NCBI GenBank assembly: GCA_963662335.2
Contig: CAXXVD010000002.1
Coordinates: 1-64,000 of the forward strand
Direction of reading: 5' to 3'
DNA: 64,000 nucleotides
Origin: Chloroflexota bacterium
GTDB lineage: Bacteria > Chloroflexota > UBA11872 > VXOZ01
This document shows positions 45,123 to 61,123 of the stretch, piece after piece. Position numbers and translations under genes: made by a program. Below the pieces are notes generated by a model. The model searched no databases. It was not told the DNA's origin and saw only the letters and a list, made by a program, of their open reading frames with translations. Position 1 is the stretch's first letter; each line of letters begins with the position of its first letter.

Positions 45123-46322
45123 GTGCAAGAATCACCAACGACCGAAGAAGCGGTAGCGACCGAAGAAGCGATGACGATGGAGTCTCTCCTGGGAGAGATC
45201 GAAAGCTCCATTCGCACGGTGCGGCGCGGAGACGTGGTTGAGGGCGTCGTGGTGCAGGCGGCCGCGGACGAGATCATGGTGGACATCGGCCTCAAGGCGG
45301 AAGGCGTCGTCTCCGGCAGAGAACTGGCGCGCATGGACGAAGCGGTGGAGATGGACGTCGGTGAGAAGGTGCTGGTCTACGTGGTGAACCCGGAAACCGC
45401 CGAGGGGCACGCGCTCCTCTCCATCCGGCGGGCCATGGCCGAGCGCGCCTGGCGGGAGATCGACGAGCGCTACCAGAACGGCGAAATTCTGGAAACGACC
45501 GTCATCGACGCCAACAAGGGCGGCGTCATCGTGGATATTGGGCTGCGCGGCTTCGTGCCCAGTTCCCAGCTTGTTTCCCTGGAGCGCCCCCCGAACCGCG
45601 ACGCCAGTGAAGAAGACCTGCTGGCGCGCCTCTCCGAACTCATCGGACGTGACCTCAAGCTGAAGATCATCGAGGTTGACCGCCGCCGCAACCGGCTCAT
45701 CCTCTCCGAGCGCCTGGCGGAGCGCGAGATGCGCGCCCAGCAGCGCGAAAAGTTGCTCAAGGAACTGGAAGTCGGCCAAACGCGCGAAGGCGTGGTGAGC
45801 AACCTGTGCAGCTTCGGCGCGTTCGTCGACCTGGGCGGCGCCGACGGCCTCGTCCACATATCCGAAATCTCCTGGAGCCGGGTGGAAGACCCCGGCGAGG
45901 TGCTGCAGGTGGCGCAAAAAGTAACCGTCTGCGTGCTCAGCCTGGACCACGAGAGCAAGAAGATCGGCCTCTCGATCAAGCGCACCCAGAAAGACCCGTG
46001 GGAAGGCATCGAGGCGCGGTACCCGGTGGGCAAAGAGGTGCCGGGCATCATCATCAAGATTGCGCCGTTTGGCGCGTTCGTGCGCGTGGAGGACGGCATC
46101 GAGGGCCTGGCGCACAATTCCGAAATGTCGCCCGAGGGGCGCGACCTGCTGCAAGAAGGGGTGGAACTCACCTTCCGCGTGCTCAGCGCCGACCCCCAGC
46201 GCCACCGCATGAGGTTGTCCCCGCTGGACTTGGAAGAGAAACTGGCGCACCTGAGGGACGCGGCGGACGAGGAATCCGCCCTGGACGAGGCTGAGGAGGA
46301 GCGCCCCACGCAAGAGGACTAG
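45123..46322 (+). CDS. rpsA: 30S ribosomal protein S1 (four S1 domains)
   Basis: VDIGLKAEG, NKGG..RGFVPSS, FGAFVDLGGADGLVHISEISW, FGAFVRVEDGIEGL. Confidence 0.92.
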   Translation: MQESPTTEEAVATEEAMTMESLLGEIESSIRTVRRGDVVEGVVVQAAADEIMVDIGLKAEGVVSGRELARMDEAVEMDVGEKVLVYVVNPETAEGHALLSIRRAMAERAWREIDERYQNGEILETTVIDANKGGVIVDIGLRGFVPSSQLVSLERPPNRDASEEDLLARLSELIGRDLKLKIIEVDRRRNRLILSERLAEREMRAQQREKLLKELEVGQTREGVVSNLCSFGAFVDLGGADGLVHISEISWSRVEDPGEVLQVAQKVTVCVLSLDHESKKIGLSIKRTQKDPWEGIEARYPVGKEVPGIIIKIAPFGAFVRVEDGIEGLAHNSEMSPEGRDLLQEGVELTFRVLSADPQRHRMRLSPLDLEEKLAHLRDAADEESALDEAEEERPTQED

Positions 46323-46396
46323 CGGGCCGGCCGCGGCGCCGGACGTTCGCGCAGCGCCGCTTGCGCCGCGCGCGGCAGGGACCCAGGAGCATTGCC

Positions 46397-47122
46397 GTGA
46401 GTCCCATATACGACAAATACACGGAGCGCGCGAAGCGGACTCTCGCACTGGCGACGGAAGAGGCGCGCCGGTTCAACCATAACTACATCGGCACCGAGCA
46501 CCTGTTGCTGGGGCTGGTGCGGGGGGAAGAAGGCATAGCCGCGCGGGTGCTCGCCGACCTGGGAGTGGACATCGGCAAGACGCGCAGCGCAGTAGAATTC
46601 ATTATTGGGCGCGGCGACCACGTAAGAGTCGGCGACATCAGCCTGACGCCCCGCGCCAAGAAGGCCATCGAATTCGCTACGGAAGAGTCGCGCCGCCTGG
46701 GGCACAACTACATCGGTACCGAGCACATCCTGCTGGGCATGGTGCGCGAAGGCGAAGGGATTGCGGCAGGCATCCTGGAGACCCTGGGCGTAGACCTGGA
46801 CAAGCTGCGGCAACGGATTATCCAGGCGGTGGCAAGTCCCGGCGCACCGGCGCGGCAGGGCCTACCAGCCGCTACCGGAGAAGCGGCGCAACGCCAGGCG
46901 GCAGACCGGCTCGGTTACACGCCGGCCGCCAGGAAGGCGCTCAGGCTGGCGGCGGATGAGGCGCGCCGGTTGGGTCGCAGCGAAGTTGGCGCCGGCCACC
47001 TGCTCCTGGGCCTGGCGCGCGATGAAGAAGGTATCGCGGCAGGCATTTTGGTGAGTCTGGGCGTGAATCTGGAGCAGGTACGCCAACGGGTTATGCAAGC
47101 GGGGAACCAGGAACCGGAGTGA
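46397..47122 (+). CDS. Stand-alone Clp N-terminal (Clp_N) repeat protein, three repeats, no ATPase
   Basis: First ~145 aa nearly identical to the N-domain of the next gene; third repeat YTPAARKALRLAADEARRLG..HLLLGL; own AGGAG RBS and stop. Confidence 0.88.
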   Translation: MSPIYDKYTERAKRTLALATEEARRFNHNYIGTEHLLLGLVRGEEGIAARVLADLGVDIGKTRSAVEFIIGRGDHVRVGDISLTPRAKKAIEFATEESRRLGHNYIGTEHILLGMVREGEGIAAGILETLGVDLDKLRQRIIQAVASPGAPARQGLPAATGEAAQRQAADRLGYTPAARKALRLAADEARRLGRSEVGAGHLLLGLARDEEGIAAGILVSLGVNLEQVRQRVMQAGNQEPE

Positions 47123-47141
47123 TCCCAGGAGTGAATACGTC

Positions 47142-49607
47142 GTGAGTCCTCTGTACGACAAGTATACGGACCGCGCGAAGCGGGTGCTGGCGCTGGCGAC
47201 GGAAGAGGCGCGCCGGTTCAACCATAACTACATCGGCACCGAACACCTGCTGCTGGGGCTCGTGCGCGAAGGCGAGGGCATCGCCGCCAAGGTGCTCTAC
47301 GACATGGGGGTGGAACTCACCAAGGTGCGCGGCGCGGTGGAGTTCATCATCGGGCGCGGCGAGCGCGTGAACGTGGGCGACATCAGCCTGACGCCCCGCG
47401 CCAAGAAGGTCATCGAGCTTGCCACGGAAGAAGCGCGCCGCCTGGGGCACAACTACATCGGCACCGAGCACCTGCTCCTGGGCCTGGTGCGCGAAGGCGA
47501 GGGCATCGCCGCCGGCGTGCTGGAAAGCCTGGGCGTGAGCCTGGAGAAGGTGCGCCAGCGCGTCATCCAGGCGGTCAGCCAGCAACCCTCGCGCCTGACC
47601 CACGAGAGCGGCGGCCGCCAGTCCACCTCGCGCACTCCTTTGATCGACCAGATGGGCATCGACCTCACCGCCGCGGCCCGCGCGGAGAAACTCGACCCCG
47701 TCATCGGCCGCCAGCAGGAAATCGAGCGCGTGGTGCAGATACTCTCGCGCCGCACCAAGAACAATCCCGCCCTCATCGGCGAGCCCGGCGTCGGCAAGAC
47801 CGCGATCGTGGAAGGCCTGGCGCAACGGGTGGTCGAGGGCGACGTGCCGGAAACCCTGCTGGGCAAGCGCCTGCTGACCCTGGACATCGGCGCGTTGGTA
47901 GCCGGCACCAAGTACCGCGGCGAGTTCGAAGAACGGCTCAAGAAGATTCTGGAAGAGATTCGCGGCTCCGGCGACTGCATGCTCTTCATCGACGAACTCC
48001 ACACGTTGGTCGGGGCCGGCGCGGCCGAAGGCGCGGTGGACGCGGCCAATATCCTCAAACCGGCCCTGGCGCGCGGCGAACTGCAATGCATCGGCGCCAC
48101 CACCCTGGACGAATACCGCAAGTACATCGAGCGCGACGCCGCTTTGGAACGCCGTTTCCAGCCCGTGCACGTGCGCGAACTCGACATCGAAGAGACGATC
48201 GCCGTGCTTCAGGGCGTCAAGGAGGCCTATGAGGAGCACCATAAGGTGCACATCGTCGACGAAGCCATCAAAGTGGCGGCGGAGATGTCCGGCCGCTACG
48301 TCACCGACCGCTTCCTGCCGGACAAGGCGATCGACCTTATCGACGAGGCGTCCTCGCGGGTGCGCATCCAGCAGGCCAATACCTCCAACGCGCTGCGCAA
48401 CGCGGTGAAGGACCTGGACGGCATCGTGCGCGAAAAAGAGGACGCCATCGAGGGCCGCCAGTACGACGAGGCGGTTGGGTTGGGCGAGAAAGAGGCCGAG
48501 TTGCGCAAGCAGATCGAAAACCTGGAATCGGACTGGCCGAACCAGGAAGAGAAGTGGCCCGAGGTCACCAAAGAGGACGTGGCGACCGTGGTCTCCATGT
48601 GGACCGGCATTCCGGTGACGCGCATCGCCCAGGAGGAATCCGACCGGCTGCTTCACATGGAAGAAAACCTGCACCGGAAAGTGGTAAGCCAAGAAGAGGC
48701 GGTGAGTAACGTCTCCAAGGCCGTGCGGCGCGCGCGCGCCGGCCTGAAAGACCCCAAGCGGCCGATTGGCTCCTTCATCTTCGTCGGTCCCACGGGCTCC
48801 GGCAAGACCTATCTGGCGCGGGCGCTGGCAGAGTTCATGTTTGGCAGCAGCGACGCTATGGTCCTCCTGGATATGTCGGAGTACATGGAGAAGCATACGA
48901 TCTCCCGCTTGGTGGGCGCGCCGCCGGGCTACGTGGGCTACGAAGAAGGCGGCCAACTCACTGAAGCGGTGCGGCGGCGCAGCTATTCGGTGGTGCTGCT
49001 GGACGAAATCGAGAAAGCCCACCCGGACGTCTTCAACGTGCTGCTGCAAATCATGGAAGACGGACGCCTCACCGACGGCAAGGGCCGCACGGTGGACTTC
49101 CGCAACACGATTCTCATCATGACCTCCAACGTGGGCGCGCACCTGATCAAGCGCGACGCCGCCATCGGTTTCAAGCTGGACGCCTCCGACCTGCGCACGG
49201 AAGACCAGATGTATAAGGAGATGCGGGAACGGGTGATGGCGGAGATCAAGAAGACCTTCCGCCCCGAGTTCCTGAATCGCGTGGATAGCGTCGTCACGTT
49301 CCGCCACCTCTCGAAAGCGGACATCATCAACATCGTGGACATCCAACTCGCCGAGGTGCAGGCCCGCCTCACCGAGCAGGAGATCACGCTGGAAGTGACC
49401 GACGACGCCAAGGAACTGCTGGTGGAACAGGGCTACGACCCGGACAACGGCGCGCGGCCGCTGCGGCGGGTGATCCAAAACCTGATCGAGAACGAGCTTG
49501 CCGAAGGCCTGCTGGCGGAGAATTTCCACGCCGGCGATACGGTGGTCATAGACCGCGACGGCGAGGCGCTGCGCCTGGACGTGCGCGTGCTGGTTGAGCA
49601 GGCGTAA
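47142..49607 (+). CDS. clpC: ATP-dependent Clp protease ATPase ClpC
   Basis: Two Clp_N repeats, [11 protein letters not shown]-type M domain, [11 protein letters not shown] ClpP loop. Confidence 0.95.
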
Positions 49608-52515: not shown

Positions 52516-53205
52516 ATGAGCATACTCCATACGCTGCGGCAGGACATCGACGCAGCGCTGGAACGCGACCCTGCCGCCCGCAACGTAATCGAAATCGTCT
52601 TGGCCTATCCGGGCGTGCACGCCATCTGGTTCTACCGCCTTACGCGCGCCCTGTGGCAGGCGGGCGTGCCGGTCCTGCCCCGCGTGCTCTCCCATTTTGC
52701 CCGCTTTCTCACCGGCATCGAGATTCACCCGGGCGCGCGGCTGGGCCCGGGCCTCTTCATCGACCACGGCATGGGTGTGGTGATTGGCGAGACCGCGGAA
52801 GTGGGCCGCAACGTGACGCTCTACCAGGGTGTGACCCTGGGCGCGCAGACGCTGCACACCGGCAAGCGCCATCCCACCTTGTGCGACAACGTGGTCGTCG
52901 GCGCGGGCGGCAAGATCCTGGGGCCGGTGACGGTCGGCGAGGGGTGCGTCATTGGGGCCGGGGCCGTGGTTGTCAACGATGTGCCGCCCCACGCCACCGT
53001 GGTGGGCGTGCCGGGCCACGTGGTCGCCATGCGCGACCCGCACACCGGCGAAAGCGCGCGCGTGGTGCAGCCGGACCCCATGGCGGAAGCGCTCTACGCC
53101 TTGCAGAAGCGCGTCGTAGACTTGGAAGCGCGGTTGGCCCGCTTCGAGAATGAAGAACCGCCGCCGCAGCGCGAGGAGATGCTGGAGAAGTGCCGTGACG
53201 CTTAG
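52516..53205 (+). CDS. cysE: Serine O-acetyltransferase
   Basis: [27 protein letters not shown]. Confidence 0.95.
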
Positions 53206-54643
53206 TATTTCCAATACCCTTGGCGGCCAACGAGAGCCGTTCACGCCCCTGGACGGCAAGCGCGTCAAGATGTACGTCTGTGGCATGACGCCCAAGCGCG
53301 AACCGCACATTGGCCACGCCCGCCTCTTCGTCGCCATGGACATGATCCGCCGATACCTCTCCTACCGCGGCTACGAAGTCCACCACGTGCAGAACATCAC
53401 CGACGTGGACGATAAGATCATCGATGCGGCGGAACGCGAGGGCGTGACGCCGGCTGAAGTGGCGCAGATGTACACCGACGCCTACGACGCGGTGATGGGC
53501 AACCTGAACGTCCTGCGCGCGCACGAAGTGCCCAAGGTTACCGAGACCCTGCCGCAGATCATTGCGATGATCGAAGGCTTGATCGAAAAAGGCGCGGCGT
53601 ACGCGGCGGCAGAGGCGGTCTACTTCTCGGTGCCGCGTTTCGCCGCCTACGGCGCGCTCTCCACCCGCACCGAGGAGAGCGGCGTCCAAGCCGGGGCCTC
53701 CGGGCGCGTGGACGATGAGCCGGGCAAGCGCGACCCCCGCGACTTCGCCCTCTGGAAACCGGCCAAGCCGGGTGAACCCTGGTGGCAAAGCCCCTGGGGG
53801 CAGGGACGCCCCGGCTGGCACATCGAGTGCAGCACGATGATCTACGAGACGCTGGGCGCGCAGATCGACATTCACGGCGGCGGCGCCGACCTCATCTTTC
53901 CCCACCATGAGAACGAGATCGCCCAGAGCGAGGCCTTTACGGGCAAACGTCCCTTCACGAAATACTGGCTGCACACCGGCCTGCTGACCATCGACGGCCA
54001 GAAGATGGCCCATTCCCTGGGCAACTTCATCACGATCGAAGACATTCTGGAAGAATACAGCGGCCCGGCGCTGCGGCTCTACCTGCTCTCCGTGCACTAC
54101 CGCTCACCCCTGACCTACACACCGGAGAGTCTGGAACAGGCGCGGGCGGGCCTGGCGCGGCTGACCGGCGCGCTGCGGGTAGAAGCGGACGGCGACGCCA
54201 GGGAGGCAGATCAAGACCGGGTCGGCGACGCCATAGATGAGAGCGCGGACGCCGTACTCGCGCACGCGGCCTACCAGGCGGAAACCGGCTTCTTCAGCGC
54301 CATGGATAGCGACTTCAATTCGGCCGGCGCGCTCGGCCACCTCTACCAACTGGTGCGCGAAATCAACCGCGTGGGGCCGGCCGCCGAGCCGGAGATTCTG
54401 TATCAGGCCCAGCAAACGTTGGTACGCCTGGCCGACGTCCTGGGCATCGACCTGCAAGAGACGCTGGAAGAGGAGATGCAAACCGACGCCGCCGAGTTCA
54501 TCGATCTGCTCGTGGAACTGCGCGCCGACCTGCGCCAGGAGAAGCAGTTCGCGCTGGCGGACAAGGTGCGCGATCAGTTGGCGGCGCTCGGCATTGCCCT
54601 GGAGGATTCGCCCGGCGGCACGGTCTGGCGGCGGAAGGCGTAG
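53195..54643 (+). CDS. cysS: Cysteine--tRNA ligase
   Basis: [45 protein letters not shown]; KMAHS in place of KMSKS. Confidence 0.95.
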
Positions 54644-54713
54644 CCGGTGGTCAACCCCTCTCCCTGGGAGAAGGGGCAATGTAGAGAACCCCCGTAGTGC
54701 AATGAACCCCGGC

Positions 54714-54741
54714 GTAGGGGCACAACATGTTGTGCCCCTAC
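54714..54741. repeat. Perfect 28-bp REP-like palindrome
   Basis: GTAGGGGCACAACATGTTGTGCCCCTAC; variants at 33004 and 58556. Confidence 0.85.
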
Positions 54742-54918
54742 GCCGTTTGGCGCGCTGTGCTCCGGCCGCGGGCAGCGGCGATGAATGGCGATGCCGCTCA
54801 CGCTTCGACAGGCTCAGCGCGATCGGCATCCGCTCGGCGACGAGCTTTGCGCGAACAGCATCCGCCCGCTTACAGATTCAACACGAACCGCGTCCACCTA
54901 TGGACGGCCTTCAGGCGG

Positions 54919-56418
54919 CTACTCTTCATCGAATATCCCTTCCAGACCCTCCCCAAAGATCTGCGCCTCCTCGTCGTACGTCGCAAAGGGATCCGGCATC
55001 TCCAGCACGCGGCCGCGCACGGCAATGGCTTTCCAATCCAGCACGTAGGGGATCACGTCCCAGCTTTCGTTCGCGGCCACGTCCTGCCAGTCATCAACGT
55101 AGTCATAGGCCAGGAAAAAATACCGGCGGTCCCACATCAGGTTTTCCAGGTTCGTGCGCAGGTCTTGCCAGGGGATGGCCGTATCCGCGCCCGCGTCGGC
55201 AAGGGCGCGCAGGGCGGCGCCGCGACCGTGGGCGCGGGTGTCGGGCGGCGCGTGCATTTCCGCCGTGTAGGCCGCGTCGCCCTCTACCCAGTAGAGACCG
55301 CGCAGGCGTTTGGCAAGCACGTCGAAGAGGCTGACCGACGGGTCGATTTGGTGATAGGAGAGGTCGAGTTTGATCAAGTCCGGGTCGGTCCAGGCCTGGT
55401 CGGAACCGGCGTAGCGCTTGAGTTGCTCGTGCTTGGTCACCCAATCCAGGTAGCCGTCCAGCCGCGCCGGGTCGCGCTCCAGCTCGTCCAGCGCCCACGC
55501 CCAATTCTCCAGCGTCCAGACCGTATCCGCGTCGCGCCCGCCAAAGCGGCGTTCGGCCTCGCGCAGGTAGCGGCGCTGCACCTCTATGGCGGGGATGTAC
55601 TCATCATCCTCCGTACCCACCGTCCACTTGCCGCCGGTGGTGCCGGCGATGCGGCGCAGATCGCGCACCGGGTCGGCGAGCGCGAGTTGCGGGCTCCAGC
55701 CTTGCTCCAGCAGTTGGGCCACCAGCGCGGTGGCGCCGATCTTCAACGCGGTGGTGAACTCGGAACGATTCACGTCGCCGACGATCACGTGCAGCCGCCG
55801 GTACTCGCGTCCGGCCAGCGGCTCGTCGCGCAGGTTGATGATGGGCCGGCCGCCGAAACGCACCCGGTGGCTCACGTCCAGGGTGACGAACTGCGCCCGC
55901 TGCGAGAGCGCAAACGCGGCCGGCGTATCCTTGCCGCGCGGCAGCAGGCAGCCGGCGCCGGTGTAGAGCTGGCGGGTGACGAGAAACGGCAACATGCCGT
56001 CCACCAGTTCGCGGTCGTAGGGGCTTTGGCGGATGCAGTAGTTCTCGTGGTAGCCGAAGGTGTGGCCGAAGTAGTCGGTGTTGTTCTTGACGAAGTAGGC
56101 CTGGGACTCAAGCCCGGCGGTGCGCACGGCTTCGTTGATGATGGCTTCGCCGGCGCGTTCGTGGGCCACGATGTCCGTGAGCGTGCGGCACTCGGCGGTG
56201 GCGTGCTCCAGGTGGCCGAGGTCGAGGTACATGCGCCCGCCGTTGAAGAGGAAGCCGCCGTTGCCCGGCGCTTCCCCCCATTCCCGGGGCGGCGGGTCGA
56301 TCAGGCCGTGGCGGCAGCCGCGGAAGATGGCGTCCTTTACCAACACCGCCGCCCGCACGGGCTGCACGCTGCCCACGCAGCCGTATTCGATCTCGGTGCC
56401 GAACAGTGCGTCATCCAT
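54919..56418 (-). CDS. pafA: Pup/UBact-type protein ligase (PafA family)
   Basis: FGTEIEYG, GNGGFLFNGGRMYLD..H.E.ATAEC, KNNTD, GYHENY, SQRA, RPIINLRDEP, YRRLHVIVGD, DLSYH, PPDTRA, DW, MPDPF. Confidence 0.9.
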   Translation of the reverse strand: MDDALFGTEIEYGCVGSVQPVRAAVLVKDAIFRGCRHGLIDPPPREWGEAPGNGGFLFNGGRMYLDLGHLEHATAECRTLTDIVAHERAGEAIINEAVRTAGLESQAYFVKNNTDYFGHTFGYHENYCIRQSPYDRELVDGMLPFLVTRQLYTGAGCLLPRGKDTPAAFALSQRAQFVTLDVSHRVRFGGRPIINLRDEPLAGREYRRLHVIVGDVNRSEFTTALKIGATALVAQLLEQGWSPQLALADPVRDLRRIAGTTGGKWTVGTEDDEYIPAIEVQRRYLREAERRFGGRDADTVWTLENWAWALDELERDPARLDGYLDWVTKHEQLKRYAGSDQAWTDPDLIKLDLSYHQIDPSVSLFDVLAKRLRGLYWVEGDAAYTAEMHAPPDTRAHGRGAALRALADAGADTAIPWQDLRTNLENLMWDRRYFFLAYDYVDDWQDVAANESWDVIPYVLDWKAIAVRGRVLEMPDPFATYDEEAQIFGEGLEGIFDEE

Positions 56419-56442
56419 GGCTGCCCTACCCAGGAAGCGCGC

Positions 56443-56652
56443 CTACTCGCCGCCGGGCTGCGGCGTGGGATCGGGCACTTCGCGAATGATGCGCCGGATC
56501 TCCTCGTCCAGATCGTCGGTCTCGGTCTTTTCCGGCGCTTCCGTGGGCGTTTTCGTCGGCGCTTCCGTGCCCGCCCGCGCCGGACGCAGACCGCGCCCCG
56601 CCGCGCCGGCGGCGGGTTCCGTCCGCGCTTCGTTTCCAGCATACCACGTCAC
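56443..56652 (-). CDS. Small Pup/UBact-like protein modifier ending in GGE (69 aa)
   Basis: AAAGGAGG RBS and a GTG start overlapping the dop stop (GTGA). Sequence: MTWYAGNEARTEPAAGAAGRGLRPARAGTEAPTKTPTEAPEKTETDDLDEEIRRIIREVPDPTPQPGGE. Confidence 0.82.
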   Translation of the reverse strand: MTWYAGNEARTEPAAGAAGRGLRPARAGTEAPTKTPTEAPEKTETDDLDEEIRRIIREVPDPTPQPGGE

Positions 56653-58208
56653 GTGCCGCCTCCTTTGTGCGTTAACCGGTGGAGTTCCTCGATCGTCTGA
56701 CACGCATCCACCATAGCCTGTTGCCGCGCCACCGTCTCGCCCCAGAGTTCGGGCAGGGCGAGGGTGAAGGACGCGCCGTTGTGTTGGAACGTAATCGACC
56801 CCCACTCCATGGCGCTGACGTGGGGCGCGAACTTGGCGAGACAGGCCGCGCGCACGCCGGCGCGGGTGTCCGCCGGCGCGGTGGTCTCGGCCCGCTCGAC
56901 GTCGTCGTCCGTGACGATACGCCGCATCCGCCCCGCGCGCGCGAGCATGTGGTAGAGGCTCACCGCCGGGTCTACCAGGTGGTAGGCCACGTCCAGCCGC
57001 AGCGCCGCCGGGTCGTCCCAATCGATGCGCTCCCCGCCGCCGATCTGGGCGAAGAGCGCCAGCTTGGCCGCCCAGTCCACGCGGTCGCGCAGTTTTGCCG
57101 CCGCGTTCGCCTCCAGCAGGTCCAGCGCCGCGCCCCACTCGTCCAGCACCCAATCGGTCTCGGCGTCGCGGCCGCGGTAGCGCAAGGCGGCTTCCCAGTA
57201 ATGGCGCTGCACGTCCACGGCGCGGACAGTCGTGCCGTCGGCCAGCGCCAGCGGCCGCGTGCATTCCAGATCGCGGGAGACCGTGCGCAGCGCGTGCACC
57301 GGGTGTTGCAGTTGCAAACGCGGGGCCGCGCCTTCCTCCACCAGGTCGAGCATCAAGGCCGTGGCCCCCACGCGCAGGGCCGTGGCGAACTCGCTGCAAT
57401 TGGCGTCGCCGATGATCACGTGCAGACGGCGGTACTTCTGCGCGTTGGCGTGGGGCTCGTCGCGGGTGTTGAAGATCGGGCGCTGGGTGGTGGTATTGAT
57501 GCCTACCTCGGTCTCGAAGAAGTCCGCCCGTTGACTGATCTGAAAACCGCCCTGGCGCCCGTTTCTCGTCTCATGCGTGGAGTGCGCTTCATAGGCAGAC
57601 TGGCTTTCGTGCGCCGCCTTGCCCGCGCCGGCGTAGATTTGGCGGGTGACGAAGAACGGGATGCAGGCGCCGATCAGGTCGTCCAGCGGCACGGCGCGGC
57701 TGACGAGATAGTTCTCGTGGCAGCCGTAACTGCGCCCGTGATAGTCAGTGTTGTTCTTGACCAGGCGCACCCGGTCGGGCTGGCCGGTGGCGGCGTTGCG
57801 CGCCTGCTGCGCCCGCCAGACCACGCGCTCGCCGGCCTTGTCGTGGGCCACCAGGTCGCGGAGGGAGAGGCAGGCGTCCGTGCAGTATTCCGGGTGGTTG
57901 TGGTCGTTGTAGAAGCGCGCGCCGTTGGCCAGCACGGTGTCGGCCAGGAGTTCCTGCCGGCTGAGGCGCTGGCTCTTGGCGGTGTTCTCCGTGCGCAGGT
58001 CGTGCGGGTCTTGATCCAGGCGCGCGACCCGCGTGCCGCGCAAGTCCAGCCGCGGGTCCTCGGCGGCGTAGTCCCAGCCGCGAAAGTTTTGCCCCGCCAG
58101 CGGCGCGCTGCGCACGAGCATCGCGGCCTCGTAGGCAAAGTCCACCGCCTGCGCGCTGTTGGCGCAAATCATGCCGTACTCGGTTTCGATGCCTACGGGT
58201 CGATTCAT
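56649..58208 (-). CDS. dop: Depupylase/deamidase (Dop family)
   Basis: GIETEYG, WDYAAEDPRLDLRG Dop loop, VLANGARFYNDHNHPEY, KNNTD..G.SYGCHENY, FQISQRADFFE, NTRDEPHA, YRRLHVIIGDAN. Confidence 0.9.
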   Translation of the reverse strand: MNRPVGIETEYGMICANSAQAVDFAYEAAMLVRSAPLAGQNFRGWDYAAEDPRLDLRGTRVARLDQDPHDLRTENTAKSQRLSRQELLADTVLANGARFYNDHNHPEYCTDACLSLRDLVAHDKAGERVVWRAQQARNAATGQPDRVRLVKNNTDYHGRSYGCHENYLVSRAVPLDDLIGACIPFFVTRQIYAGAGKAAHESQSAYEAHSTHETRNGRQGGFQISQRADFFETEVGINTTTQRPIFNTRDEPHANAQKYRRLHVIIGDANCSEFATALRVGATALMLDLVEEGAAPRLQLQHPVHALRTVSRDLECTRPLALADGTTVRAVDVQRHYWEAALRYRGRDAETDWVLDEWGAALDLLEANAAAKLRDRVDWAAKLALFAQIGGGERIDWDDPAALRLDVAYHLVDPAVSLYHMLARAGRMRRIVTDDDVERAETTAPADTRAGVRAACLAKFAPHVSAMEWGSITFQHNGASFTLALPELWGETVARQQAMVDACQTIEELHRLTHKGGGT

Positions 58209-58262
58209 CGTTACCTCGCGGTACCGCGTTACCTCACGGTACCGCATTGCCTCGCGGTACCA
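58209..58262. repeat. Three tandem 18-bp units abutting the dop start
   Basis: CGTTACCTCGCGGTACCG / CGTTACCTCACGGTACCG / CATTGCCTCGCGGTACCA. Confidence 0.85.
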
Positions 58263-58661
58263 GCCGAACTACACGAGGGCCTCCGTCATTCCCGCGCACG
58301 CGGGAATCTATCTTCGCCTTGATTGCGGAAACCCACCTTGGCCGCGCAAGCGGGATTCCACCTTTGCCGCGTTCCCGATGGATTCCCGCGTGCGCGGGAA
58401 TGACGGTCCGAAGTCGCCCCCCACTCTCAATTACACATGCGGCCTCGCCCATACTTGGGCGGCCTCGCGGAGCTTTGGCGAATCCGCCTACGCAGCGCTA
58501 TTTTCTAGTATAGCAAGCCGCAGCGCCGTTGGGTCCCCGCGCGCGGCGACACTGCGTAGGGGCACGACATGTCGTGCCCCTACGCGTTGGACTCCAGCGC
58601 GCGCGGGCGATACGCTAGAGGGCGCGCTTCCGTGACGGTAGGCGAACCGGGAGACAACGGC

Positions 58662-59633
58662 ATGACCCTGCGCGAACTCTACGAAACGGCCATCGAAATC
58701 GGCCGCGAGGTTGATCCTCGTGGGCGCGCGGCGCTCGACCGGCAGCTTGAAGCGCGGCGGCGGGAATTCGCCACGCTGCCGGCGTGGCGCACACCCTACT
58801 ACGACCGCGAGCGCTTCACCAATCCCTACGGCGACGTGCGCATCGTGAACGGCCCGGCGGACACCGAACTCGATACCATATTGCTGGGCATAAACATCTG
58901 GACCCAGGAACTCCTGCTGGCAGACCACCTGCGGGGCAACGGCACGCGGGTCGACGCGGTGATTTCCCACCATACCAACGGCATCGGCGTGCCGACGGAC
59001 ACCCTCATCTACGACTCGGTGCCCTATCTGGTGGACCTGCTCGCAAGCGCCGGCGTAGCCCGCGCCGACGCCGAACCGCATATCGACGCTATGATGACCG
59101 AACGCTGGCTCGCCGTCGAGGACGCCAACCGCATCGGCCGGGATACGGCAAAATTGCTTGGCTTTCCCCTGGCCTGCATCCATACACCGGCGGACTTTCA
59201 CCACGGCATCGGCGTGCGCGGCGCGATTGAGGCCGCCAACGCGCGGACGGTCGGCGACGTGGTGGAGGCGCTGCTGGCGCTGCCGGAGTTTCAAGGCGCG
59301 GCGCGCATTGGCGCCATCCCGCGCATCATGGCCGGCGACGCCGCCCAACCGGCCGGCCGCATCTTCCACCAGGACGGCGGCGGCTGGCTTTTTCCGGCGG
59401 ACGTGATGCCGTTGCTCAAAGATGCCGGCGTCGGCACGTTCGTCACCATCGGCTGTTCGCCCGCCCACCAACGAAAGGCTGAGGAACTCGGCATGAACTG
59501 GGTGCGCATGCCCCACGGCGCGTGCGACAACGTGGGCCTCAACCTACTGCTCGATAAGGTGGAACAGCGCCTGGGGCCGCTGAACGTGATCGCCTGCAAC
59601 TACTTCGAGCGGATCACGCGCAATGGCAACTGA
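58662..59633 (+). CDS. NIF3 (NGG1p-interacting factor 3)-like metal-binding protein
   Basis: MTLRELYE.AIEIG..DPRG, YDRERFTNPYGDVRI, ISHH, IHTPAD, PH..CDNVG.NL; family recalled from memory. Confidence 0.7.
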   Translation: MTLRELYETAIEIGREVDPRGRAALDRQLEARRREFATLPAWRTPYYDRERFTNPYGDVRIVNGPADTELDTILLGINIWTQELLLADHLRGNGTRVDAVISHHTNGIGVPTDTLIYDSVPYLVDLLASAGVARADAEPHIDAMMTERWLAVEDANRIGRDTAKLLGFPLACIHTPADFHHGIGVRGAIEAANARTVGDVVEALLALPEFQGAARIGAIPRIMAGDAAQPAGRIFHQDGGGWLFPADVMPLLKDAGVGTFVTIGCSPAHQRKAEELGMNWVRMPHGACDNVGLNLLLDKVEQRLGPLNVIACNYFERITRNGN

Positions 59634-60103: not shown

Positions 60104-61123
60104 ATGGTAACCCTACGCGGTTTGTATGAAACGTCCATCGCGATTGGGCGCGCACTGGATCCCAGGGGCCAGGCGGCCATCGAGGGCCAACTGCGGCAGC
60201 GCCGCGACGAGTACGCCGCGCTGCCGGCCTGGGAGCAAGCGCTCTACGATCAGGAGCGCTTCCGCAACCCGTATGGCGACGTGCGCATTGCCCACGGCCC
60301 GGCGGATACGCCCATCCAAACCGCGCTGGTCGGCATCAACATCCACGTGCCGGAGATGCTGCTGGGCGCGCACTTGGCCGCCAAAGGCACGCGCATCGAC
60401 GCTTTCATTTCCCACCACACGAACAGCGTCGGCGTCTCCGCCTCGCTGGTGGCAGACTTCATGGAGATCAACGCCGACTATCTCATCTGGGAAGGTGTGC
60501 CGGAGGATGAAGCGCGGGCGTCCATCTTCGACTACATGGCGGAGCGCCTGCAAGCGCACGAGGACATGCACCGCATCGGCCCCGACACCGCCAGGCTGCT
60601 GGGCTATCCGCTGGCCTGCATCCACACGCCGGTTGACCTGGCGCACCGCCAGTACATCAACGCGCTCTTGGCACGGGGGAAGCCTGAGACCGTCGGCGAC
60701 ATCGTCGAAGTGATGCTGACGCTGCCGGAGATGCAAGAAGCCGCCCACATCGGCGCATGGCCGCGCGTCATGGTTGGCGACGCGGCGCAACCCGCCGGCC
60801 GCATCCACGCAAAATTCGCCGGCGGCTACGCCTATCCGCCCAGCGCCTATCCGCTGCTGGCGCGGGCGGGCGTGAACACCGTGGTGCAGGTCTCGGCGTC
60901 GGCGGCCACGGTGGACGCCTGCCGCGCGCACGGCATCGCCCTGGTGCGCCTGCCCCACTACGCCACCGACAATATCGGCCAGAACCTGCTGCTGGACGAA
61001 CTGATGCGCCGCCTGGCGCCGTTCAACGTGATTCCCTGCAACTACTTCGGCCGGGTGGACCGGGCGGGCGACTTGGCCAAGTTGCTGGCGGCAGGGCCGA
61101 TCATCAGGAGTCTCCGTCACTAG
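60104..61123 (+). CDS. NIF3-like protein, tandem paralogue
   Basis: Same motifs: DPRG, NPYGDVRI, ISHH, IHTPVD, PHYATDNIG. Confidence 0.7.
   Translation: MVTLRGLYETSIAIGRALDPRGQAAIEGQLRQRRDEYAALPAWEQALYDQERFRNPYGDVRIAHGPADTPIQTALVGINIHVPEMLLGAHLAAKGTRIDAFISHHTNSVGVSASLVADFMEINADYLIWEGVPEDEARASIFDYMAERLQAHEDMHRIGPDTARLLGYPLACIHTPVDLAHRQYINALLARGKPETVGDIVEVMLTLPEMQEAAHIGAWPRVMVGDAAQPAGRIHAKFAGGYAYPPSAYPLLARAGVNTVVQVSASAATVDACRAHGIALVRLPHYATDNIGQNLLLDELMRRLAPFNVIPCNYFGRVDRAGDLAKLLAAGPIIRSLRH

Follow-up and report, generated by a model that had tools for sequence, protein, structure and literature searches.

A candidate third lineage of Pup/UBact-kind protein tagging in a Chloroflexota class, at a locus without ARC or 20S proteasome genes

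What could a protein tag of the Pup kind be used for in a cell in which neither the unfoldase ARC nor a paired 20S proteasome is detected? This question is raised by a three-gene operon on the minus strand (54919-58208) of the stretch of DNA analysed here, the first 64,000 nucleotides (nt) of contig CAXXVD010000002.1 of a Chloroflexota bacterium (assembly GCA_963662335.2; GTDB lineage Bacteria; Chloroflexota; UBA11872; VXOZ01), which we call the window. The operon encodes, all in one orientation, a Dop-like enzyme (deamidase/depupylase), a small modifier and a PafA-like ligase. No Pup or UBact system studied so far is known to lack the ARC/Mpa unfoldase, which is kept even in actinobacteria that have lost the 20S core. 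The initial annotation took the locus for a distinct tagging module, in a probable Chloroflexota host, with neither ARC nor 20S genes, and profile searches of the whole genome support this core reading. We consider it likely that the three genes form a working, reversible tagging operon of the Pup/UBact kind, which represents a third lineage, operates without ARC and the proteasome and carries a tag that is read by a different partner. Among the genomes searched, this lineage was found in one Chloroflexota class only. The enzymes themselves are of a known kind; what is new is the type of the tag and the class-wide retention of the system without ARC or proteasome.

The operon, its enzymes and its tag

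The dop-like gene (58208..56649, minus strand) encodes 519 amino acids (aa) from the ATG at 58208. Use of an in-frame ATG further 5', at 58247, would give an alternative product of 532 aa; in relatives the protein starts at MNRP..., which makes this ATG an unlikely start. The TGA stop of the dop-like gene overlaps, as GTGA, the GTG start of the modifier gene (56652..56443, minus strand), whose 69-aa product has the C-terminus ...DDLDEEIRRIIREVPDPTPQPGGE. The TAG stop of the modifier (56445..56443) is followed by 24 nt and then by the ATG, at 56418, of the pafA-like gene (56418..54919, minus strand; 499 aa). The co-oriented trio, the overlap and the 24-nt gap, all described in the initial annotation, were confirmed from the open reading frames (ORFs) and the sequence. 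The same arrangement is present in 93 of the 98 class genomes and is therefore far beyond chance.

Both enzymes belong to the Pfam family Pup_ligase (PF03136; cut-off 25 bits), with 503.8 bits for the dop-like and 352.5 bits for the pafA-like gene. On the NCBIfam models, the dop-like gene scores 435.7 bits as Dop (TIGR03688) versus 357.6 as PafA, and the pafA-like gene 292.6 bits as PafA (TIGR03686) versus 252.1 as Dop. The motifs listed for the two enzymes in the initial annotation are all present in the translations: GIETEYG, YNDH, HENY, SQRAD and RRLHVI in the Dop-like protein, and GTEIEYG, YLDL, HENY, SQRAQ, RRLHVI and GNGGFLFNGGR in the PafA-like protein. In alignments of 11 Dop-like and 25 PafA-like rows, the GxExE, catalytic Asp, HENY, SQRA and RLH columns are invariant. 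Positions that discriminate Dop from PafA are tabulated in Table 1 of Hecht 2020 (PMC7947786). The gene at 58208..56649 encodes a Dop loop, an alpha-loop of the Dop type (FFETEVGIN) and, right after the catalytic Asp, a His (YNDH), and the gene at 56418..54919 lacks the Dop loop and encodes L-D-h-G at the catalytic Asp (YLDLGH) and A-T-A after the HxE motif (HATAEC). By these signatures the former fits the Dop type and the latter the PafA type. Compared with solved structures, the dop-like gene scores 343.9 bits against depupylases and 234 against ligases. The AlphaFold2 model of PafA has a predicted local distance difference test value (pLDDT) of 88.8 and a predicted template modelling score of 0.90, and within the C-terminal part of the protein it shows a class-specific insertion, about 40-45 residues long, as two helices around a disordered loop (429-438). 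The closest named homologues and the matching public records are from Chloroflexota (metagenome-assembled genomes).

The modifier matches no family in Pfam or NCBIfam. Three class modifiers, from three families, gave no match at E<=1 to the models PF05639, TIGR03687, PF20513 and NF033388, of which the last two, from Pfam and NCBIfam respectively, define UBact. In comparison, four UBact control tags scored 75-89 bits on NF033388 and 67-85 on PF20513, and two actinobacterial Pup control tags scored 68-75 bits on TIGR03687 and 76-89 on PF05639. Read locus by locus, the small ORF after dop shows three distinct C-terminal patterns. The consensus is ...ILDEIDEVLEENAEEFVRSYVQKGGQ in the Actinomycetota tags, ...LLKRMRRVDPxQAxRYRQRTGE in the tags of the UBact phyla and of one class member, G017, and ...DDLDEEIKRIIREIPDPTPQPGGE in the tags of the window's class, which follow the pattern RI[IV]RE[IV]P[DGN]PTPQPGG[EQ]. 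UBact-type loci were found here in Nitrospirota, Armatimonadota, Nitrospinota, Poribacteria, Latescibacterota and Bipolaricaulia, in one Verrucomicrobiota locus and in G017. Judged from its sequence against the curated models, the modifier is a third tag type, neither Pup nor UBact.

The class tags are 55-100 aa long as called. Their last 17 residues are near-invariant across five families, while the N-terminal part and the neighbouring residues drift, and a second conserved motif, E-A-P-x-K-P-x-E-x-P, lies about 30 residues ahead of the C-terminus. Of the 26 genomes read, 20 have a tag ending in E and 6 a tag ending in Q, one of the latter (G016) in the window's own genus, and such switching is the pattern that would be expected if the Dop-like enzyme deamidates Gln, as in Pup. 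A profile built from 19 class tags and searched against 1.84 billion representative proteins recovered 27 representative clusters (21 at E<=1e-10), mostly small proteins in which the match ends at the C-terminus; the 13 matches that were read either contain both motifs or are cut short or frameshifted ahead of their end. A word-based search with the modifier returned 23 near relatives, none of them named. In hhalign profile comparisons the class tag was related to UBact with a probability of 0.4%, and to Pup with an E of 1e-3 and a probability of 20% over 14 columns; as Pup versus UBact itself gives 0.7%, this comparison cannot show relatedness for such short tags. The remnant that the tag would leave on lysine after trypsin was computed as about +1203.54 Da for EVPDPTPQPGGE and +1217.56 Da for the Ile form; the Arg ahead of E[VI]P is the last Lys or Arg of the tag.

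The phylogeny of the enzymes was reconstructed with Pup- and UBact-type references in a careful joint tree of Dop and PafA (51 rows) and in a quick tree of Dop (54 rows, 13 of them from the class). In the joint tree the class Dops and the class PafAs each form a clade of their own (100/100), and the Actinomycetota enzyme clades (100/100 each) exclude the class enzymes. The sister group of the class PafA clade is formed by the UBact-type PafAs (100/99), so that the pafA-like gene of the window groups with the pafA-position genes of UBact-type loci (100/99); the UBact-type PafAs are monophyletic (97/91), and the class clade stands outside them. In the quick tree the 13 class Dops form one clade (100), which groups with the UBact-type Dops (90) and apart from the Actinomycetota-type clade. 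On these trees the class enzymes appear to be a deep separate branch and not a recent offshoot of a UBact locus.

The spacing between motifs, taken from those rows of each group in which the spacing script matched the motifs, gives a mixed picture. The Dop loop region measures 80 residues in the class, 78-80 in UBact-type and 73 in Actinomycetota proteins, and the N-terminal spacing of PafA 45, about 50 and 36, respectively. From HENY to SQRA, PafA has 44 residues in the class, 53-75 in UBact-type loci and 42 in Actinomycetota; from SQRA to the C-terminus the values are 324, 276-292 and about 281, the class value being due to the class-specific insertion. The enzymes had been described in the initial annotation as UBact-like in appearance, and this impression was borne out by the Dop loop and by the ligase segment PGNGGFLxNGGR, which is present in UBact-type but not in actinobacterial PafAs. 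The class system thus shares with UBact the two enzyme families, the order dop, tag, pafA, a small tag ending in G[EQ], the PGNGGFLxNGGR segment, an N-terminal PafA spacing close to that of UBact and a Dop loop of the same length. Unlike UBact, its tag ends in PDPTPQPGG[EQ] instead of RYRQR[ST]G[EQ] and matches no UBact model, its PafA lacks the insert between HENY and SQRA and has its own insert in the C-terminal part, and neither the class-type locus nor the window's own genome has arc, prcB or prcA. With the actinobacterial Pup system it shares the GG[EQ] end, an acidic helix (LDEEI...) similar to the beginning of Pup's helix, the short HENY to SQRA spacing and an affinity to the solved Dop and PafA structures, which are the best sequence matches in the PDB; the same chemistry would be expected. 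It differs from that system in that the tag matches no Pup model, the second helix segment of Pup (NAEEFV..YVQK) is replaced by a proline-rich stretch, the enzymes fall outside the Actinomycetota clades, and ARC/Mpa and 20S are not found.

ARC and proteasome genes in the genome, the class and other phyla

The window's own genome (3.23 Mb in 5 contigs, 96% complete) contains only two Pup_ligase genes, the dop and pafA of the trio. No ARC/Mpa was found in it: the best match to TIGR03689 (144 bits) is the AAA part of a 652-aa ORF which, by its membrane N-terminus and HExxH motif, reads as a putative FtsH, and the ARC OB domains (Prot_ATP_ID_OB_N and _C) are absent from it at E<=0.1. The Pfam Pup model has no match in this genome at E<=1, and a PF00227 profile search detected no paired 20S alpha and beta subunits. 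The genome also holds ClpP, a ClpX-like gene and three ClpC/ClpB-like genes. One option considered in the initial annotation, that several paralogous modules share a distant proteasome, was rejected, as the genome has two Pup_ligase genes, no further dop or pafA copies and no 20S pair.

Of 41 relatives, 40 have the dop/pafA pair, as do 93 of the 98 class genomes; the five class genomes that lack it are small, at 1.9-2.2 Mb, with a completeness of 76-93%. Among 251 sampled Chloroflexota genomes, each at least 80% complete, the Pup_ligase family was found in 26 of the 28 class members compared with none of the 223 others. The arrangement is therefore a trait of the class and is not peculiar to the window's genome. 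ARC-like matches at E<=1e-60 occur in two of the 98 class genomes, G017 (453 bits) and G095 (221 bits); that of G095 is a 721-aa protein matched in its AAA part only, and that of G017 is the sole true ARC. PF00227-family matches occur in 12 of the 98 (the window's own genome is not counted among these); 11 of them are weak singletons (22-46 bits), and adjacent prcB and prcA were found in G017 only. In G017 a full UBact-type locus (arc-dop-tag-prcB-prcA-pafA) is present and the class-type trio is missing, and the enzymes of G017 group with Armatimonadota in the trees; a separate acquisition of this UBact locus would explain the pattern. Three more Pup_ligase paralogs, without a Dop loop and with a long insert before SQRAD, each stand alone in G017 (loci L034, L035 and L036).

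A scan across phyla, with one genome per species, 80 named loci and the ARC, PrcB and PrcA of G017 as queries, places this in context. In 66 of the 74 loci of other phyla, arc or prcB lies beside dop (arc in 59, prcB in 52; prcA in 49), and neither does so in any of the 6 named Chloroflexota loci or of 17 class loci. Several of the eight exceptional loci of other phyla are on short contigs. Five were searched genome-wide; all five genomes carry Pup_ligase genes, and in four of the five ARC is encoded elsewhere. Scattered loci of this kind do exist in other phyla, yet ARC is present in most of those checked.

A precedent is Corynebacterium glutamicum, which lacks prcBA and retains pupylation, with ferritin disassembly by way of pupylation and ARC in which unfolding is still involved (PMC8223512). 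The class system resembles it in being a pupylation-type system without a proteasome. However, Corynebacterium has ARC as the unfoldase, whereas here ARC was not found and the tag is changed; the C. glutamicum control genome was above the TIGR03689 cut-off in the same ARC searches. Among the phyla that Iyer 2008 (PMC2588565) names for pupylation are verrucomicrobia, nitrospirae, deltaproteobacteria as well as planctomycetes; those given in Hecht 2020 (PMC7947786) include Actinobacteria, Nitrospirae, NC10, Armatimonadetes, Verrucomicrobia, Nitrospinae, Firmicutes, Proteobacteria and Planctomycetes. Literature searches aimed at the phylum, which did not extend to the taxa listed in the supplements of these two surveys, found no pupylation-type system described for Chloroflexota.

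How the tag may be used, and what else the locus could be

We propose a mechanism in which the attachment and removal of the tag would follow the Pup chemistry, by analogy of the ligase, deligase and tag with their family, and the subsequent use of the tag would not follow the Pup route. The PafA-like ligase would bind the 69-aa modifier at its C-terminal helix and proline-rich tail, activate the side-chain carboxylate of the terminal Glu with adenosine triphosphate and join this carboxylate to lysines of target proteins. The Dop-like enzyme would take the tag off again and, with the Gln-ended tags of relatives, would first deamidate Gln to Glu. The tag would then be read by a partner other than ARC and the proteasome. 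Its downstream route probably differs from the Pup-proteasome pathway, because no ARC or 20S was detected here or in nearly the whole class, and because the tag has lost the sequence that accompanies ARC-bearing loci.

The first of these steps was modelled as a complex of PafA and modifier residues 28-69, both given as alignments. The predicted complex scored 0.77, compared with 0.01 for the best of three controls, and the mark that it reached is also reached by 58 of 80 solved complexes and by 2 of 110 mismatched pairs; the runs share at least 81% of contacts, with a partner pLDDT of at least 68. The model places modifier residues 44-69 on PafA. The tag helix (48-56) rests on PafA helices 332-371, and the proline-rich tail (58-69) contacts PafA around its catalytic Glu, Asp and HENY residues, at 11-21, 66-69 and 115-124. 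None of the confident contacts involves the upstream motif (about residues 29-41). The presence of a second conserved motif in the tag, which the complex model leaves off PafA, suggests a further binding partner, and the E-A-P-x-K-P-x-E-x-P motif is probably the docking site of that partner. As to the outcome of tagging, we give equal weight, in each case a little short of an even chance, to a non-degradative regulatory or remodelling mark and to delivery to a Clp-, FtsH- or Lon-type machine, and leave the small remainder to other outcomes. The fuller account, in which the class has, probably for long, kept a third Pup-family tag with its ligase and deligase, without ARC or proteasome, and a new partner reads the tag through the second motif, we put at even chances.

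Several points weigh against the proposal of a working tagging system with a different reader. Both enzymes are below the NCBIfam equivalog cut-offs (435.7 versus 492.3 bits for Dop, 292.6 versus 551.3 for PafA), and the pafA-like gene matches solved actinobacterial structures of the ligase and the depupylase almost equally (210.3 and 208.9 bits). In the joint tree the split between Dop and PafA has a support of only 76/80, and the position of the class Dops is unsettled, as the three Dop groups form a three-way split. A solved PafA-Pup complex (4bjr) exists, and the success of the complex model may reflect likeness to it and not binding by this particular copy. The genome also has a proteasome-beta-like singleton of 242 aa on another contig (G000:C3:463592-464320; L003:1096-1824), which starts with MT..., has no alpha partner and scores 43.8 bits on PF00227 and 41.8 bits on the archaeal beta model. 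As the genome is 96% complete in five contigs, the absence of ARC and 20S rests partly on closed genomes of relatives, and a divergent unfoldase may be present that the ARC models do not see. Finally, both the reader that we propose and the function given to the upstream motif are purely inferred.

The singleton and the incomplete assembly are also what an ordinary Pup- or UBact-proteasome system would lead one to find, had its ARC and 20S genes been missed in unassembled DNA or through excessive divergence. Moreover, the PF00227 matches of the own genome vary from search to search, being weak in two and absent in the class-wide one. Against this, the single-contig genomes of the same genus (G001, G003-G007, G011, G015 and G016) have no ARC and at most a beta-like singleton, and the same searches did detect ARC and prcBA in G017 and in other phyla. 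ARC OB domains are lacking in the own genome, proteasome-family matches are sporadic in the class (12 of 98) where the tagging module is nearly universal (93 of 98), and the modifier is without the Pup or UBact sequence that goes with ARC-bearing loci. We consider a missed proteasome very unlikely for these reasons. If ARC and the proteasome were truly lost, the failure to find either, together with the disappearance of the module from five small class genomes, might mean that the trio is a functionless evolutionary remnant of that loss. However, all the class Pup_ligase matches listed are open and without internal stops, the catalytic columns are invariant, and the last 17 residues of the tag are nearly unchanged across five families while their neighbours drift. 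Broad agreement with the class families and long internal branches, both seen in the enzyme trees, are what prolonged vertical retention would be expected to produce. A remnant is the least probable of the alternatives considered here.

The locus might also have nothing to do with the tagging of proteins, the small ORF being a scaffold or precursor peptide whose C-terminal Glu is joined to a small amine, or the enzymes being metabolite amidoligases like other carboxylate-amine ligases. PafA and Dop are members of a superfamily of carboxylate-amine ligases related to glutamine synthetase (Iyer 2008, PMC2588565), the PafA of the class carries its own insertion, and no target, reader or degradation machine is identifiable. 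Yet the pairing of a ligase with a Dop-loop hydrolase, the E/Q switch of the last residue and the groove contacts of the tag are features of protein pupylation, and the trio has no conserved biosynthetic or export genes as neighbours. We rate this explanation as only marginally more credible than a remnant, and below a missed proteasome. A working tagging operon whose tag is read by a partner other than ARC is therefore the reading that we prefer.

If this reading is true, conjugation of the Pup type would be a free-standing form of signalling that has been coupled to proteasomes only in some lineages. A class that has a ligase, a deligase and a tag, and no ARC or 20S, would show the role of the modification without a proteasome, and the absence of a known reader would make it a good entry to proteasome-independent functions of the modification. 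The third deep branch would bear on which came first, conjugation or its coupling to the proteasome. The natural pair of tag and ligase may not cross-react with Pup and PafA, and could possibly serve as a second pair for proximity labelling. There is also a gap in annotation: because no current Pfam or NCBIfam model detects the tag, such loci are named as two 'proteasome accessory factor' genes with an unnamed small ORF in between, and a profile of the class tag, such as the one that recovered 27 representative clusters, could close this gap.

Neighbouring sequence and minor observations

The initial annotation placed cysS and repetitive extragenic palindromic (REP) elements on one side of the trio and divergent NIF3-like genes on the other. 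This description of the flanks stood, except that the NIF3 identity is weak. On the pafA side, cysS (53150-54643, plus strand) is convergent to pafA, and a 32-nt perfect palindrome (54712..54743), which may be a terminator or a REP element, lies between the two gene ends. A 94% identical copy at 58554-58585 lies 5' of dop, so that the element flanks the operon on both sides. On the dop side there are two tandem paralogous genes on the plus strand (58662-59633 and 60104-61123), about 50% identical to each other, for which no Pfam or NCBIfam match was found at normal thresholds; their likeness to NIF3 consists of a Pfam match at E=0.16 and a score of 0.96, by protein-atlas features, to clusters named NIF3. 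As partners of the system these genes were rejected, since they lie beside the trio in only 1 of 20 loci of relatives (G011, of the same genus). ClpC (47067-49607) is convergent to the trio, with radA, ispD, ispF and cysS in between, and 5 of 15 class loci have a ClpC-like ORF within about 4-6 kb, so that its role as a linked partner is unsupported. Being rarely near the trio in relatives, neither the NIF3-like genes nor ClpC are evidently part of the system, and across families no neighbouring gene is conserved with the trio. ClpC has two Clp_N repeats of its own, and directly before it, with a slight overlap, is a 275-aa frame with three further Clp_N repeats (46295-47122, plus strand), which may be an independent Clp_N protein or an N-terminal extension of ClpC that has been frameshifted.

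The divergent intergenic region 5' of dop (58209..58661) is the presumed promoter and leader. It contains a second, 30-nt inverted pair that is REP-like (58283-58312 and 58377-58406). Promoter scanning gave no match to the sigma-70 consensus, and terminator-like sites were no commoner than in shuffled sequences. Directly 5' of the dop ATG on the minus strand (58209-58262) are three tandem 18-nt units of the form GGTACCGCGAGG-AA-GC. Each unit holds GAGG, a possible ribosome-binding site; alternatively, the units might be an operator. The ATG at 58247 lies within them.

Two further observations concern other loci. Four loci of the same genus (L030, L031, L048 and L049) have a gap of 300-680 nt between tag and pafA, compared with 24 nt here, and the extra sequence may be an insertion of REP-like elements. 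In the Chthoniobacterales (Verrucomicrobiota), loci L055, L058, L061, L071, L072, L074, L075, L080, L088, L089 and L096 have dop, often with arc adjoining it. No small ORF ending in G[EQ] was found within 900 nt 3' of dop in these loci except in L071, where the ORF is not tag-like, and there is no prcBA or pafA in the flank examined. Three genome-searched Chthoniobacterales genomes have two Pup_ligase genes, and in these the second gene is located on another contig.

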